Below are positions 7,538-22,428 of a stretch of DNA of 64,000 nucleotides, piece by piece. Numbering within the stretch: the stretch's first letter is position 1; each line of letters begins with the position of its first letter. The stretch is from a virus. Taxonomy: Duplodnaviria > Caudoviricetes. The stretch lies in IMG/VR virus record IMGVR_UViG_3300027819_000006. One strand, 5' to 3'. The notes beneath the pieces are model-generated. The model was not told the DNA's origin. It did no database searches and saw only the letters and a list, made by a program, of their open reading frames with translations. The position numbers and the translations under genes were made by a program.

Positions 7538-7882
7538 TGGTGGACCTGGAGAATATCGAAATTCTCGTGTAGTCTATGCTACATAAAAATTGTATTGTAC
7601 ATGCTTTTGCAAATTCTAATTTTTCATTCTGTTATAAAGAATTAGCAAAGTTTATAACAGAATTATTCTTTCTATTTATTAAAAGAAGTGTTCTTATCAG
7701 ATATGAATGATGCTATTCTATTTCCTATCTGCAAAATTTAGATAGCATAGCTGTTTAGCTCTTAAGCAGCTAGTTTGTATTGATTTTTGTCAATTACTAT
7801 TTTGCTGTAAGTTTAAAGAGTTTATAGCAAACTCTGCATGCAATTCTTACTTTACATACCTATCGATTCCAATTTCAGGCCC
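7538..7882 (-). ncRNA. ssrA: tmRNA (complete), tag (A)DKNQYKLAA
   Basis: 5' GGGCCTG pairs with 3' CAGGTCC-ACCA with a G3.U pair; AATCGATAGG D-loop region; GCATGC and AAGCATGTA; T-arm GAGAAT-TTCGAT-ATTCTC; tag ORF GAC...GCT GCT TAA at 7762-7791. Confidence 0.92.
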
Positions 7883-13677: not shown

Positions 13678-14454
13678 CTATGGATTGAATCTACTACCCC
13701 AATTATTATGGATTTCTTTATGACACTTCCTGCAAAGTATTAATCCATTCAATAAGTTTTCATCTTTTATTCTATCACAATTAGCTAAATAAGCAGCTTT
13801 ATCATCGTCACAATCGAAAACAATATTACATTTTGCTAATTCCTCTTTTATTAATATGACCATAGGAACTATATGATGAGCATCTAATTGTTCTTTGCTT
13901 CCGCATTTTGAACATTTATCATATGCAGCATACATTTTATTGTACCATTTAAATCTTCTACTGACTTCTATTTTAACTTTAACTGTTAGAGTGTGAAATC
14001 TACCACCTTTCCATGCAGTAGCATTTTTGCCGGTCTTGCCTGTTCTCGATATAGACATTTTATTCCTAGTAGCTATAGAATGTTTTTTATGATACATACT
14101 ATTTTTAGGACCAGATGTATCTCTAATTTTTATAGCATTTTGATATTTTTCTGAATTTCTTACAGCATTTCCATGTTCTTTCTTTTTTTCATCAGTCCAA
14201 AATGCTTTAGTTCTTTGAGGAGGATGATTTATGGGAACTATTTTTCTATAACATGGCTGGCATATATCTATATGAGATTGTCTATTTATTTTATTTCCAC
14301 ATTCACACATCATATTATTTCTACAGGGTCCACATATTTCGTATCCACATCTTATAGAATCTTCTTTTAATTCATTATTACAGCTGCGTATTTCACATTT
14401 CATTTTTATCTCCTTGAATATAATAAATATACTCAAGAGAGACAAATGAATCAA
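13678..14454 (-). CDS. HNH homing-endonuclease-like protein with NUMOD3-like motif
   Basis: KKHSIATRNKMS, CSKCG...HHI...LCRKCHKEIH. True start is probably MKCEIR. Confidence 0.8.
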   Translation of the reverse strand: MIHLSLLSIFIIFKEIKMKCEIRSCNNELKEDSIRCGYEICGPCRNNMMCECGNKINRQSHIDICQPCYRKIVPINHPPQRTKAFWTDEKKKEHGNAVRNSEKYQNAIKIRDTSGPKNSMYHKKHSIATRNKMSISRTGKTGKNATAWKGGRFHTLTVKVKIEVSRRFKWYNKMYAAYDKCSKCGSKEQLDAHHIVPMVILIKEELAKCNIVFDCDDDKAAYLANCDRIKDENLLNGLILCRKCHKEIHNNWGSRFNP

Positions 14455-15703: not shown

Positions 15704-18700
15704 CTAAACAATCTTGAAACCATCTACAGAATATCTAGAAATTCTATTAACCTCTTCTTCTTCATGTTTCTCCATCTGATTCAAATAGAAAGCAAATCTC
15801 TCTTCTATATGCTCGTTCAAATCGTAAACTTTATCAGAATAAACTTTCAAATCTGCTGCTTTCTTCTTTGATTCTTCAAAATTCTCGACATGTTTAGATA
15901 TAGCATCTGTCCACACTTTAGGAGCTGTAACACTTACTGCCATGTTTTCAAATCTTAGTTTATCGGGAACAGTTTTCCAGAAGTCATGATAACCTCCATA
16001 ATTGCTGAATACTGGGACTGCTCCATAATACAAAGATTCTATCAGCTTTATCTCTGATTTGCACTCGCTAAATGTATTATGTTCTACATATGCCAAAGAT
16101 ATATCAAACAGAGTATAGAATTTAGCATATTCTTCTAGAGGCAGAGCATCAAAAATTTTTATTCTCTTTGGATCAATACCTGAATATAGTTTCTCTACTC
16201 TGTTTCTATAAGTCAAGCTCTTGTCTTGCAATTCCATTTCTCTGAATTTAGCCTGACCATTCTCGTCATATTGTATTTCTACTTGTGAATCTTTCAATGC
16301 CATACCAGCAAGCACAAATACAGTCTGTGGATATCTGTCATGTATGACTTTTAGAATGGAATACATTTTTCTCAGATCTTCAAAATGACTTGTAAGACCT
16401 GCCCAGCCAATAACAATTTTATTGTCAGTTGAAGGAAACCATTCTGGTAACATTTGCTGTCTAGTATCAGAAATATTTAAATTCCATTGTGGCAGTTGCC
16501 AGTCAAACATATTTCTGATTATATGCACATTCTTATTGAAATTTCCAAATGTTTTACATAGTTTCTCAGTAGTAGTTGTAATAGCATGACTCTTGCTTAG
16601 AGAGTGAATGCTCATTTGATCTTTTTTGCTTGCATCAATTATGTTGCGATGATATCGATTCCATATCATCTCTTATGGTCACCCATAAGTTCAGACTATT
16701 TCTTGTGCTATATTCAAAAGCACCTCTCTGTTTCAGCTTCTCTTGAAGCTTACATTATATAGTCGTTGCACTATCTGTGTTTCAAATATTCAGCTATTAT
16801 GCTGATTACTGCAATAAGAGATATTACAGATAAAGCATATATTAAAATATACTTTCCAAATAGCTCAGAGTTTTCTCAGTGAGATTTTCTCTGAATTAAG
16901 AGAGTTTTTATTATGTGAAGCAATTTAATACCACACATCACGCATCAATTATGTTATCTTAGAAGTTCTTTATCTTCTAATTCTGATAATTTTATTCTTA
17001 TCAGTTCGGACTATATCATCAGTATTGAAATACTGTCTCTTTTTCTTGGATATTTCTATCTAGTCTCTGAACCTTCTATTTTATCAATAGTTTAGCTGCT
17101 GATTAGCATTTCAGCTTTCCAGCAATTTAAGAGATTTTTCATTGAATTATTCAATGCCCCAATTTTTATTCAGGGTGCGTTCTTGGTAAGTTGAATTCAT
17201 TATCTATTTATTTGTTAACTGCAATTTCTTTTATTATAGTTGCAGATCGGACTATTTCATCTAGTTCTATGTCTAGTCTCTGAACCTTCTATTTATATAG
17301 CTTGGCTGCAGATTGTCTCTGTCTGAGATATCCCTGCAATTTATAGAATTTATTGTGGACAATATTTGAATTCTAAAAACTTAATCCACATCATGACAGA
17401 CCCAAGCAGATTTCTCTGTCTTCGGCCACATGTTTACTGCTGATAAAAAATGTGAATGTAAATTTCCACATCTGTGCATTATTATTCCATCTGCTAATTT
17501 GAGATGATTCGGTTGTCATTTATGTTGCGGAATTTATTCGCAATAAGCTGCTGAAAATAATATGCATGGTTTCTTAACTTTTATATTGATTTCTTCGAAG
17601 CTATAATCTCTAAAAGTATGAAAATTAAATTCATCTTCATTTCCAAAAGATCTTTTTAGTGTTGCTTTAGCCTCTTCTAAATCTTTTGCTGCTATAAAAA
17701 TTATACTAAGTGAATAACCTTTACATGCTTTTACTTTAAAATATTTCATAATAAATTCCTCTACAATTTTTTATATTGTTGTAGTTCGGACTATCACATG
17801 ATCTTATAATATACTAAGCTGCTACCATTCAATTTTACCAGATTTACGAACTAATTTGTTGCCATATAGAGTAACTACTAATACATCTTCTAATACTTTA
17901 TATGTTCTTTGTGCAGCGTTTGATTTAAATAATTTCTTAACAGAAGCTGCTTGTTTCTTAGTCATATATCTGTAATTCACCATAAGACCTCCAAGGTTTA
18001 GTCTCTTCTACTGCATTTTCATGCTTGTAGTTTGTTAGCTTTAATTATGTTTCTAATTTGTTTTTTGTCTAATTTATCAGAAGATATTACGCATCCAAAA
18101 TCGCTAGTATTTTTAGTGTCAGGATGTTGATAAATGTGTAATCCAAATTTGTATTTTAAAACATGTTCTAATATCTCTATGTAGCTCATTGGACCTCCTG
18201 CAATTATTTCTTGATTCATAGTCAAAGCCTTTCAATTTAATTACTTAAGATTCTCATTTCTATATTGCTATAGAATGATCCACATTGTCTAGATTTTCAG
18301 TATAAACTAAATTTATCTCATCTCTAAAATTCTTCCACAGTACTCTCATCGGTTCAAAGATTCTGAAATATGCTTTCATGTTAGCTACAATTTTTGATAT
18401 AGTTGTAGTTCGGACTATCATATGATCTTTATGCTTTACCAAGTCTCAGGATCATTTCTATAAAAGTGTACAAATGCTAAAAATATTATAATACATCCTA
18501 GTGGTAAAATTAAACATTTTAGATCTCCAATCGTTTAGTCTCTCAAGCTGCAAAATTGTTTATAAAGCTTCCTGTCTTGATTAAAATATACTTTTTCTAT
18601 TGAAAGCTCTACTAAATTATAAATATATGCACACTTTCTATTATCTTTGGGACATCCTGGATCTTCTGCTTCTAAATATATAAGAGGAGAATATTTATCT

Positions 18701-19309
18701 CTATATATTTTAGCAATTTTATAATCCCAACTTTTGAGCTGTCTTACCTGAACTTCAACCCAAAAAGGCATGTACCTATAGTTCATCATGTTTTGCTTGC
18801 TCCTTGTTGTCTGATTTCTATGATCAGATATTCAAGTGATTAGATTAGATTCTCATTCTATATTATTAGAATGACACCATTTAAAATGTTCCAGTTTCTG
18901 CTTTATGTTAATCTCTAATTTTTTGTATAGTTAGAGTTCGGACTATCATATGATCTTTACAGATTATTAAAATCAAAACCTTCTCCTTTATAATTCTCTG
19001 TACAATATGTCGCAACGAATATTAAAAGAAAAATTATTATTCCGCCCATAAAAATCTCCAATCGTTTAGTCTCTCAAGCTGTATTTAAACTTGTTCCTTG
19101 TTGTCTGAATTTTATTCAGATATTCAAGTGATTAGATTAGATTTTCATTCTATTGCTTATAGAATGCCGCCAGAATTTAACGGAGTGCTAAAAACGATAC
19201 AGCGCTTAGATCGATCGATGCTAGATGGATTAGTGAACATTTGTTTCAACTTGTTTCTTTCTTCAGCATTTTTATAGTTCAAATGCTCTTCTACATTTTC
19301 TTCTGTAAT
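15704..19309 (-). CDS. GT-B glycosyltransferase, 7 exons interrupted by six group I introns (446 aa spliced)
   Basis: Exons 19309-19180, 18900-18886, 18372-18291, 17516-17384, 17204-17172, 16945-16930, 16635-15704 total 1341 nt in frame: ...STPSETGTSYFRIFEP...HDVDDNEFNLPRTHPMRDVWYASKKDQ...IGWAG...KSEIKLIE. Probable ATT start behind AAGGAG. Confidence 0.88.
16636..16929 (-). mobile_element. Group I intron 6 (294 nt)
   Basis: P1 GUGUGGU/GCUUCAC; AAUCAGCA; GCAACGACUA; AAGAAAUAGUCUG; ends AACAUAAUUG; splicing restores the TAT codon. Confidence 0.88.
16946..17171 (-). mobile_element. Group I intron 5 (226 nt)
   Basis: P1 CCCU/GGGG; AAAUUGCUGGAAA; AAUCAGCAG; UUCAGAGACUA; GAUGAUAUAGUCC; ends AACAUAAUUG. 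Confidence 0.92.
17205..17383 (-). mobile_element. Group I intron 4 (about 179-180 nt, very compact)
   Basis: P1 GUGGAU/GUCCAC; AAAUUGCAGGGA; AAUCUGCAGCCAAG; UUCAGAGACUA; GAUGAAAUAGUCC. Confidence 0.9.
17534..17749 (-). CDS. 71-aa ORF looped out in a 3' helix of intron 3
   Basis: Flanked by complementary GAGGAATTTATT / AATAAATTCCGC. Confidence 0.55.
   Translation of the reverse strand: MKYFKVKACKGYSLSIIFIAAKDLEEAKATLKRSFGNEDEFNFHTFRDYSFEEINIKVKKPCILFSAAYCE
17822..17983 (-). CDS. 53-aa basic ORF inside intron 3 (not in ORF track)
   Basis: GGAGG then ATG; MVNYRYMTKKQAASVKKLFKS...KIEW. Confidence 0.5.
   Translation of the reverse strand: MVNYRYMTKKQAASVKKLFKSNAAQRTYKVLEDVLVVTLYGNKLVRKSGKIEW
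18019..18225 (-). CDS. Small ORF inside intron 3
   Basis: ORF track; AGGAGG before internal ATG (MSYIEILEH). Confidence 0.5.
   Translation of the reverse strand: MTMNQEIIAGGPMSYIEILEHVLKYKFGLHIYQHPDTKNTSDFGCVISSDKLDKKQIRNIIKANKLQA
18373..18885 (-). mobile_element. Group I intron 2 (513 nt), core nearly identical to intron 1
   Basis: P1 ACAU/GUGU, P10 AUG/CAU, same P3 and P7 strands as intron 1, ends AACAUGAAAG. Confidence 0.92.
18535..18789 (-). CDS. 84-aa ORF inside intron 2 (no homing endonuclease motif seen)
   Basis: ORF track; AAGGAG upstream within the intron core. Confidence 0.55.
   Translation of the reverse strand: MMNYRYMPFWVEVQVRQLKSWDYKIAKIYRDKYSPLIYLEAEDPGCPKDNRKCAYIYNLVELSIEKVYFNQDRKLYKQFCSLRD
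18901..19179 (-). mobile_element. Group I intron 1 (279 nt)
   Basis: P1 CCGU/GCGG with U.G at the 5' site; P10 UUCUG/CAGAA; P3 UCUAAUC/GAUUGGA; P7 GAGACUA/UAGUC; ends AACAUAAAG. Confidence 0.92.
18957..19049 (-). CDS. 30-aa hydrophobic mini-ORF inside intron 1
   Basis: GGAG-6 nt-ATG; MGGIIIFLLIFVATYCTENYKGEGFDFNNL. Confidence 0.45.
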   Translation of the reverse strand: MGGIIIFLLIFVATYCTENYKGEGFDFNNL

Positions 19310-21305: not shown

Positions 21306-21556
21306 TTATCTGATTTTTCTAATGGGAAGAATTTGCCTTCGTCTAAGTGGTTTTTTCTAGTACATTCTTCACAAGCTCCAAACTGACTAAAAAATTGTGC
21401 TGACCATCCCGTCAGTAGATTACCACATTTTTTACCATGTTCATCGACTCTGTCGCAAAAAACTGGAGAAATAGGTTTGTGATTTTCTTTTATAGTGCTC
21501 ATGTTGCTGTGCCATTTTTTTGTTTTATTTATTGGCAATCCTTGAAAGTTTTCCAT
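21302..21556 (-). CDS. Small Cys-rich (Zn-binding) protein
   Basis: FCD..., KCGNL, GACEEC. Confidence 0.55.
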   Translation of the reverse strand: MENFQGLPINKTKKWHSNMSTIKENHKPISPVFCDRVDEHGKKCGNLLTGWSAQFFSQFGACEECTRKNHLDEGKFFPLEKSDK

Positions 21557-22428
21557 TTGCTATCCTTTTTTAAATCTTCATAGAACAATATATAATATAT
21601 GTTTTCTAAATTATATTTTTCTAGAAAGTTTTTTATTTTAATTTTATTACACTCTGTTAAATATCCTTTGACTTCTTCTATTCTTATCAAATTATCATTC
21701 TCATCATAAATAAAGAAATCAGGAGTATATGTAGTTCCTTCTAATCTATATGTTATTTCTTCATACTTCCAGTTTGCAGATATAGAATCTAAAAATTGAG
21801 CCCTCTCTAATTCATAAGAAGATTTCAAATAATAATCTCTATATTCACTTTTTATATATCGATTTTTTATATTTGGGCTAACTTTTCTGCTCTGAACTAT
21901 CTTAACATTTCTATCGAACCACATCTCTTCAGCTTTTTCAACACCATATTCAGCTATCCACATATCTTTTACTGATACACCAAACATCCCATTCATAGAG
22001 CCAGTTAAACTCCAAGTTCCATTTTTCTTTTTACTTTCTTCTGATTTTGTAGTAATTTTTATCATAGTTTCTTTAGAATGGCGATGTCCAGTCATAGGAG
22101 GTATCTGTTGCAAACGTTTATCACGTCTTTCTTTTGAATCATAGACATGTTTTTTACAATATCCGTATTTATTCGGATTAATCCTTTTATTACAGCCTTC
22201 ATGTTTGCATATTACTTTTCTGTCATCAAAATATTTTCGCTTTCCATAGTTTGGACCATGGTGTCCTATACAAATGTAACATCTCAAAACTTTATTACTA
22301 ACGATATTATTCAGACATTGATTGCAATATTTATCTATATTGCTACAATATAAGCAGAAACTATATTCTTCAAATTGCATAGAGCGTTTATTACATTTGC
22401 TACATTCTCTGATAATTTCTTGTATCAT
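21529..22428 (-). CDS. Free-standing endonuclease-like protein (Zn ribbons, NUMOD3-like, PD-(D/E)xK)
   Basis: CxxC repeats, GHRHSKET, KSSYE...YTPDFFI...EEVKG. Confidence 0.75.
   Translation of the reverse strand: MIQEIIRECSKCNKRSMQFEEYSFCLYCSNIDKYCNQCLNNIVSNKVLRCYICIGHHGPNYGKRKYFDDRKVICKHEGCNKRINPNKYGYCKKHVYDSKERRDKRLQQIPPMTGHRHSKETMIKITTKSEESKKKNGTWSLTGSMNGMFGVSVKDMWIAEYGVEKAEEMWFDRNVKIVQSRKVSPNIKNRYIKSEYRDYYLKSSYELERAQFLDSISANWKYEEITYRLEGTTYTPDFFIYDENDNLIRIEEVKGYLTECNKIKIKNFLEKYNLENIYYILFYEDLKKDSKWKTFKDCQ

Follow-up and report, generated by a model that had tools for sequence, protein, structure and literature searches.

How do two nearly identical group I introns come to stand 15 nt apart in one phage gene, each fitted to its own insertion site? 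The question is raised by a glycosyltransferase gene in IMG/VR record IMGVR_UViG_3300027819_000006, a 64,000-nt stretch of groundwater metagenome DNA that we refer to as the window. The window has 29% G+C, and its glycosyltransferase region is transcribed from the minus strand, to which all coordinates of exons, introns, and intron parts in the window refer. The gene (15704..19309) consists of seven exons and six introns. An earlier note on this DNA had proposed that introns 1 and 2, with near-identical cores and re-targeted guide sequences, record a local intron multiplication, by reverse splicing or recombination, that was caught in the act. We review the anatomy of these twin introns, their kinship, the manner in which they diverge, and the occupancy of the same gene in relatives. 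The account that we favor, and consider rather probable, is that the twins are paralogues of one intron lineage, type A, which is poor in open reading frames (ORFs), that each has a private guide, and that their cores have been homogenized by recombination.

Two sister introns around a micro-exon

Intron 1 (19179-18901; 279 nt, beginning UAAAUUCUGGCGG) occupies site 1, next to exon 1, whose 3' end is at 19180. Intron 2 (18885-18373; 513 nt, beginning UUUAAAUGGUGU) occupies site 2; both are of type A. Between them lies exon 2, a micro-exon of 15 nt (18900-18886; CAGAAACTGGAACAT) that reads (S)ETGT(S). The exon map was drawn with tblastn against uninterrupted homologues, and two junctions were corrected with the relatives L005 and P0020. 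Removal of all six introns yields an open frame of 1341 nt (446 codons) that is collinear with the uninterrupted homologues and reads FSTPSETGTSYFR, as do those of 443 aa. The PSxTGTS motif, found unchanged in 21 homologues, is made complete by exon 2. The introns split serine codons in the same manner, T|CA, at Ser44 (intron 1) and Ser49 (intron 2). The pair is not a twintron, in which one intron is nested in another and no coding exon separates the two: the 15 nt separating the twins encode the invariant SETGT.

Each intron carries a guide for its own flanks. In intron 1, the guide UUCUG-GCGG (19167..19175) pairs through its P10 part with CAGAA of exon 2 and through its P1 part with CCGU of exon 1; in intron 2, the guide AUG-GUGU (18874..18880) pairs with CAU of exon 3 and ACAU of exon 2. 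P1 has 4 bp in both twins, and U(-1) of the 5' exon faces G, giving a U.G pair at the splice site. P10 has 5 bp in intron 1 (UUCUG/CAGAA) and 3 bp in intron 2 (AUG/CAU). Both introns end in ...AAAG, with the terminal omega G present. The sites themselves are alike: CCGU|CAGAA and ACAU|CAUAU have xCxU|CAxA in common. The coordinates and strings that the earlier note gave for introns 1 and 2 are all correct on the minus strand, and the guide pairings that it described, each with the intron's own flanks, can be read from the sequence as it had them.

Long identical blocks had also been reported for the twins, and a repeat search recovers them at 28, 38, 26, and 61 nt; it also finds the string that introns 4 and 5 were said to have in common. 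The block P2'-P3-J3/4-P4-P5 of intron 1 (19116-19153; 38 nt) is 97% identical to 18824-18861 of intron 2. The block P6'-J6/7-P7-P3' (19054-19081; 28 nt) is 100% identical to 18523-18550. The 3' block J8/7-P7'-P9-tail (18899-18959; 61 nt, 80%) has copies at 18371-18431 in intron 2 and at 17747-17807 in intron 3. The fourth block, common to introns 1 and 2, is 26 nt long at 88% identity. The assignment of block strands rests on covariation in P3 and P7, and the P3 and P7 strands of the twins are identical. Blocks of this length are far beyond chance for sequences of 279 and 513 nt.

Kinship was assessed over 84 alignable core positions (P3-J3/4-P4-P5, P6'-J6/7-P7-P3', and J8/7-P7'-J7/9). Introns 1 and 2 are identical at 81 of the 84 (96.4%), and neither exceeds 70% identity with any of six other family members. 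A maximum-likelihood (ML) tree of the cores, the phylogeny that the earlier note had called for, places the twins as sisters with support of 100/98, on short tips (0.011 and 0.027) and a long common stem (0.47). Their next relatives (96/98) are introns of L013 and L015, contigs of other groundwater phages, where they interrupt an unrelated virion-type gene; intron 3 groups with introns at "site 3b" of relatives (98/99). The tree thus indicates that introns 1 and 2 are paralogues. A closer relative of either twin at an unrelated locus, which the earlier note had named as the sign of independent invasions, is absent from the collections searched. DNA similarity against 50,697 phage records returned a 70-nt core match only, scans with exact patterns of the P7-P9 and J6/7 blocks had no match in IMG/VR or GTDB genomes, and a scan with the first pattern had none in JGI metagenomes.

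A group I subclass missed by RF00028

Type A is our own label for introns 1-3 and those relatives that the Rfam model RF00028 misses. The model gives no match to introns 1-3 with its gathering threshold, nor when 1.7 kb is searched at E<=10, and it misses all eight type A introns examined: introns 1-3 and five from other contigs (L005, L009, L012, L013, and L015). In those same genes it does detect type B introns, at 47-80 bits. The miss is a limit of the model, not of type A anatomy.

That anatomy is that of a group I intron. A 7-bp P3 is fully paired in five sequence versions, with compensatory changes across 6 sequences; P7 alternates between GACUA/UAGUC and GACUG/CAGUC, a switch from A-U to G-C; and P2, P5, P8, and P9 covary too. 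RNAalifold recovers P2, P3, P4, P5, P6, P8, and P9 with 15-18 compensatory pairs, whether or not intron 1 is included, and intron 1 fits the covarying P3, P8, and P9 of its relatives. The minimum free energy (MFE) fold of intron 1 with short flanks contains P1, P2, P3, P4, P5, P6, P8, and P9 (z = -3.2), and none of 200 shuffles (0/200) folds as well. A type A profile for nhmmer, built only from introns outside the window, has three matches and no others within the 64 kb, namely intron 1 (E 2e-10), intron 3 (7e-8), and intron 2 (7e-7), the last in two halves, at E 7e-7 and 0.1. Introns 1 and 2 probably self-splice. Contigs from four other groundwater or sediment runs yielded, at this locus, identical low-coverage fragments only and no intron-less joints.

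The earlier note saw no homing endonuclease motif in any of the six introns, and the database searches agree: the intron ORFs have no match to a homing-endonuclease family in Pfam or PHROGs. Neither twin encodes a LAGLIDADG, GIY-YIG, HNH, His-Cys, PD-(D/E)xK, or EDxHD enzyme of the kind that defines mobile introns of the homing-endonuclease type. On the coding strand of intron 1, ORFs reach 35 codons at most. In L6 of intron 2 lies an ORF of 84 aa (18535..18789; start MMNYRYMP) that is absent from intron 1 and has no Pfam or PHROG match; ORFs with the same N-terminus occur in intron 3 and in one intron of L017.

Across introns and loops, two families of small-ORF cargo recur, one with the start M(M/V)NYRY(M/L) and one containing IAAK(D/N)LEEAK. 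They lie at 18789-18535, 17983-17822, and 17749-17534 of the window and at 2451-2657 and 2708-2932 of L017, and neither family has an endonuclease match in Pfam or PHROG.

Divergence outside the core

Beyond the core, the twins are far less alike. Their L8 inserts of ~93 nt resemble each other no more than shuffled sequence does (z = 0.18, p = 0.45), and the contents of L2, L5, and L6 differ. Two helices have changed on both strands: P5 reads UCUGAA/UUCAGA in one twin and UCUGAU/AUCAGA in the other, and P9 reads CUCUAA/UUAGAG and CUACAA/UUGUAG. A likeness between mini-peptides of L8 (GGIIIFL, GCIIIFL) comes without nucleotide similarity, and we treat it as unproven.

The pattern of divergence is mosaic. 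In P9, intron 2 is closer to intron 3 (22/24) than to intron 1 (18/24, or 75%). Informative sites in the core unite introns 1 and 2 in 25 cases and introns 2 and 3 in 3; in P9 the counts are 1 and 5 (Fisher p=0.0011). Chimerism is also seen in intron 3, which combines a P3-P6 core closest to the site 3b introns of relatives, such as that of L012, with a P2 and P7-P9 similar to those of introns 1 and 2. The orthologous pair of L013 and L015, by contrast, diverges evenly, with 93% identity in the core and ~88% in P9. The mosaic P9 points to DNA recombination among neighboring introns, and the simplest reading would be that the type A introns of this gene swap segments at the DNA level. The idea of an event caught in the act is not supported: the unrelated L8 inserts, the ORF of intron 2, the compensatory changes in P5 and P9, and the mosaic P9 all speak against it. 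Older paralogues whose cores were kept alike by recombination fit at least as well as a fresh transposition.

An intron hotspot in relatives

In a clade of phages that come mostly from groundwater, this gene is a hotspot for introns. L012 carries five introns in it, L009 at least four, L017 three, L005 and L020 two each, and L018, L019, L023, and L024 one each; many homologues have none. Eleven insertion sites fall within the first 140 codons, all in the invariant motifs PSxTGTS, HDxDDNEF, and HPMxxxW. Type A introns, with matching guides, occupy at least five sites in two genes: besides those of the twins in the window, site 3 in the window, site 3b in three relatives, site 2 in L009, and a site in the structural gene of L013 and L015.

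The two sites of interest are occupied in various ways. At site 1, L017 carries a type B' intron and L020 an intron of a third type. At site 2, L009 carries an intron with a 3b-like (A2) 3' part, that is, of the other type A sublineage. A further site, SET|GT, lies 7-8 nt from either twin and holds a type B intron in L012. The comparison of presence and absence per site, suggested in the earlier note, thus finds other intron types at site 1 and another sublineage at site 2. Different cores at one site, and one core at different sites, fit ectopic movement and core replacement alike. Given the other introns that stand at sites 1 and 2 in relatives, "guide adaptation" has a live alternative, in which the core was replaced where an intron was already present.

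Some observations on the relatives stand apart from this comparison. In the L017 intron at site 1 (1837-2060; RF00028 75.7 bits), a G is missing ahead of the 3' exon demanded by the frame (...GGUGAC|CAGAAAC). This reflects either a low-coverage error (the contig has coverage 4) or a further unusual 3' splice site. The type A introns of L013 (8959-9221) and L015 (315-585) interrupt their virion-type gene at ...ITKFSL|GDDE... The two contigs have the same 3' exon; L015 has an unrelated 5' exon, a different guide, and no clean in-frame junction, a pattern that may stem from replacement of the exon by recombination at the intron.

Introns at sites 5 and 6 of relatives carry larger ORFs of 212-336 aa, with a zinc-ribbon-like N-terminus and the motif "...F(Y/D)...(Q/E)(Y/I/F)(D/N)G..WHG" (L012 2712-3686, L020 3903-4913, L019 3675-4622, and L005 5013-5651). 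For the large ORFs in introns of relatives, Pfam names no endonuclease, only DUF7487. The zinc-ribbon-like ORFs are candidates for an unclassified homing-endonuclease family.

Origin of the pair

We propose the following course of events. Introns 1 and 2 would descend from one intron within this phage lineage, one copy having presumably seeded the other. Each would fold its own core and pick its own splice sites through its private P1/P10 guide. The difference between the guides should prevent skipping of the micro-exon, and we propose that the 15-nt exon is kept by virtue of these private guides. Neighboring introns would exchange segments by gene conversion, which would hold their cores near-identical, and the guide, loops, and cargo inserts would evolve separately, with selection tying each guide to its site. 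The sequences show the anatomy, the restored frame, the sister relationship, the covariation of the helices, and the mosaic signal; splicing activity, conversion as the homogenizing force, and the way in which site 1 or site 2 was first colonized are parts that we infer. Of the earlier proposal, local multiplication with guide adaptation, the paralogy and the site-specific guides are retained; its two routes, reverse splicing and recombination, are not told apart.

A fresh transposition at the RNA level would make the pair recent: an RNA like intron 2 would have reverse-spliced into site 1 and been copied into DNA, and its guide would have been tuned afterwards. Both insertion sites have the form xCxU|CAxA and split a TCA codon after T; the guide of intron 2 could form five contiguous pairs across site 1, and the guides would be separated by only two substitutions and a 3-nt extension of P10. 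Very high core identity and the presence of the family at several sites with matching guides agree with it as well. If reverse splicing took place, the step from intron 2 to site 1 would be the easier one, the guide of intron 1 forming three pairs across site 2. We nevertheless hold this event to be unlikely. The unrelated L8, the differing L6, and a P9 of 75% identity with compensatory changes argue against a recent copy of a whole intron, and the mosaic P9 points to exchange of DNA; no reverse transcriptase turned up, and no search aimed at one was made. As a route, reverse splicing is neither shown nor excluded. A copy of the core without a new site is the premise of another account, which we rate as quite unlikely: sites 1 and 2 would have been colonized independently, and one core would then have been overwritten by its neighbor's through gene conversion, with the guide and 3' end kept. 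In its favor, the type B' intron at site 1 of L017 begins with the same 5' 14 nt (UAAUUUCUGGCGGC, compared with UAAAUUCUGGCGGC in the window), a third intron type stands at site 1 of L020, the intron at site 2 of L009 has a 3b-like (A2) 3' part, and segment exchange is indicated among the introns of the window. Yet guide identity is forced by the conserved exon sequence and so is no proof of common descent; conversion would need to have begun in very short stretches of homology shared by different intron types; and P2 was replaced too.

It is very improbable, in our estimate, that two near-identical donors invaded from outside independently, aided for example by free-standing nucleases, and that nothing was copied within the gene. 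The lineage does move between genes, given that the next relatives of the twins lie in the unrelated structural gene of L013 and L015, and candidate free-standing nucleases are near, at 13678-14454 (weak HNH matches) and 21529-22428 (DUF1064). However, no donor closer than 70% appears in any collection searched, and the long shared stem (0.47) with its short tips (0.011/0.027) fits one entry followed by copying.

Several points weigh against the account of paralogues with homogenized cores. The best identity to the glycosyltransferase is ~60-68%, and no close relative of this phage was found, so the age of the duplication and of the conversion tracts cannot be dated. The mosaic test draws on a small number of sites. 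Core identity could in part be plain purifying selection, and turnover of the L8 and L6 cargo could be fast, so that it gives by itself no proof of age. The splicing of both introns is predicted from their sequence.

As a tentative extension of the favored account, which we regard as possible and rather less than probable, the group I introns of this phage clade may evolve as two separable modules. The guide, P1, P10, and 3' tail would be bound to the site, and the core would be copied between neighbors or moved in short reverse-splicing jumps. If so, one core lineage that is invisible to Rfam would have colonized at least five sites in two genes in this manner, and the eleven-site hotspot would be a natural system in which to reconstruct and test ectopic intron spread. 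We know of no direct demonstration of ectopic group I intron spread in bacteria or phages.

The host gene and its other introns

Downstream of the twins, the gene continues with exon 3 (18372-18291) and intron 3 (18290-17517; 774 nt), the third type A intron, which carries three small ORFs. Exon 4 (17516-17384) precedes intron 4 (17383-17205; RF00028 51 bits), exon 5 (17204-17172) precedes intron 5 (17171-16946; 62 bits), and exon 6 (16945-16930) precedes intron 6 (16929-16636; 38 bits); exon 7 (16635-15704) closes the gene. Introns 4, 5, and 6 have type B cores, and their boundaries were set by homology with L005, L012, and P0020. Comparison with L005 and P0020 ruled out "DKELLR" and "EMIW" as readings of exon 6.

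Intron 4 has almost no P8 and seems to end in A, not G (17204-17206, 17383-17385). The A end is assigned because the invariant HDVDDNEF needs GAU| joined to |GAUAAU, and P10 supports this junction. L017 has the same ...AAAUA|GAUGAU at 2985-2987, where a one-base shift, with both splice sites after G, gives the same mRNA; such a shift is impossible in the window. An identical stretch of 14 nt, AACAUAAUUG|AUGC, is found across the intron 5/exon 6 junction (16946-16959) and again across the intron 6/exon 7 junction (16633-16646), and the tail GAUAACAxAAUUG| is kept in the site-5 introns of L005, L009, L012, L017, and L019.

The product is a GT-B (GT4-like) glycosyltransferase. The last large ORF (15704-16669) has a PHROG glycosyltransferase match (1.2e-14). 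Protein searches list more than 100 homologues in metagenomes, of ~443 aa and mostly uninterrupted, and for the window's own glycosyltransferase protein they list a 272-kb contig. The assignment to GT-B/GT4 comes from a Foldseek search with an AlphaFold (AF2) model of the homologue P0004 (mean predicted local distance difference test, pLDDT, 90.6), which retrieves the retaining GT-B/GT4 enzymes MshA, BshA, and HepE at E ~1e-11. A sequence search of the PDB with the glycosyltransferase profile gave no match, and the read-through ORF of exon 1, used as a protein query, gave no candidates.

The frame apparently starts at ATT (19307-19309), 7 nt after AGGAG. An in-frame TAA lies close by upstream of the ATT, and no ATG, GTG, or TTG aligns with the start of the homologues. 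The window (7538-7882, minus strand), L005 (10348-10708), and L009 (3419-3768) each have a tmRNA gene (57-120 bits) at a distance of a few kb from the glycosyltransferase gene.

Significance and comparison with known systems

The locus bears on how group I introns without endonucleases spread to new sites, where the reverse-splicing route is still called unproven in reviews (PMC3984707). It makes a compact test case, in which two near-identical ribozymes, each guided differently, stand 15 nt apart, with a chimeric third relative in the same gene. Since RF00028 misses a whole subclass of phage group I introns, environmental phage genomes are probably denser in introns than Rfam-based counts suggest. 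Skipping of the micro-exon would delete the invariant loop of the enzyme, and for this reason the pair could act as a splicing-level switch of a sugar transferase.

The classical case for ectopic spread, a circumstantial one, is made by related introns at different sites of ribosomal DNA (rDNA) (Bhattacharya et al. 2005, PMC1299323; PMC3984707). In fungi and protists, as here, related introns with their own guides occupy heterologous and sometimes neighboring sites of one gene. Those are rRNA genes of eukaryotes, for which reverse splicing has been argued; here the gene is a phage protein gene, and the mosaic points to DNA recombination. The review in PMC3984707, which has work of Parker, Belisle, and Belfort among its references, states that there is no direct evidence for the full RNA-based pathway and names relaxed endonuclease specificity as another ectopic route.

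The nrdE/nrdF introns of the Bacillus cereus group and its phages (PMC2248736, PMC2504315) likewise occupy clustered sites in conserved motifs with variable occupancy. They are mostly of subgroup IA with GIY-YIG or HNH genes, and they include no near-identical twins. In collaborative trans homing (T4 mobE/I-TevIII, PMC2790892; cyanophage psbA, PMC3984707), introns without ORFs are found with free-standing nucleases, as the twins are with candidate ones. Trans homing moves an intron to the same site, however, and creates no new one, and the nucleases here are candidates.

In tandem introns of Tetrahymena, differentiated splice-site elements suppress exon skipping (PMC10136302), and the same paper cites a proposal that highly similar neighboring introns form one large hybrid ribozyme. 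The closest layout is that of orf142 in phage Twort, whose introns 2 and 3, as summarized in PMC10136302 from Landthaler and Shub (1999), are highly similar and flank an exon of 23 nt. According to that summary, both systems are phage protein genes with several group I introns, and in both a similar pair without endonuclease ORFs surrounds a very short exon (23 nt in Twort, 15 nt here). The window thus shows the features of an orf142-type arrangement, namely two similar introns (core identity 96.4%), an exon of at most a few tens of nt, and a phage gene. The differences, so far as the same summary describes Twort, lie in the introns and in the exon. The Twort introns are of subgroup IA2 and recognized by standard models, in contrast to a core subclass missed by RF00028, and they number three, compared with six here. 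Exon skipping has been seen in Twort; here, skipping would remove an invariant in-frame pentapeptide. The layout itself has been known since 1999 from Twort: what this locus adds is a subclass invisible to Rfam, evidence of mosaic exchange, and a rich comparative series.

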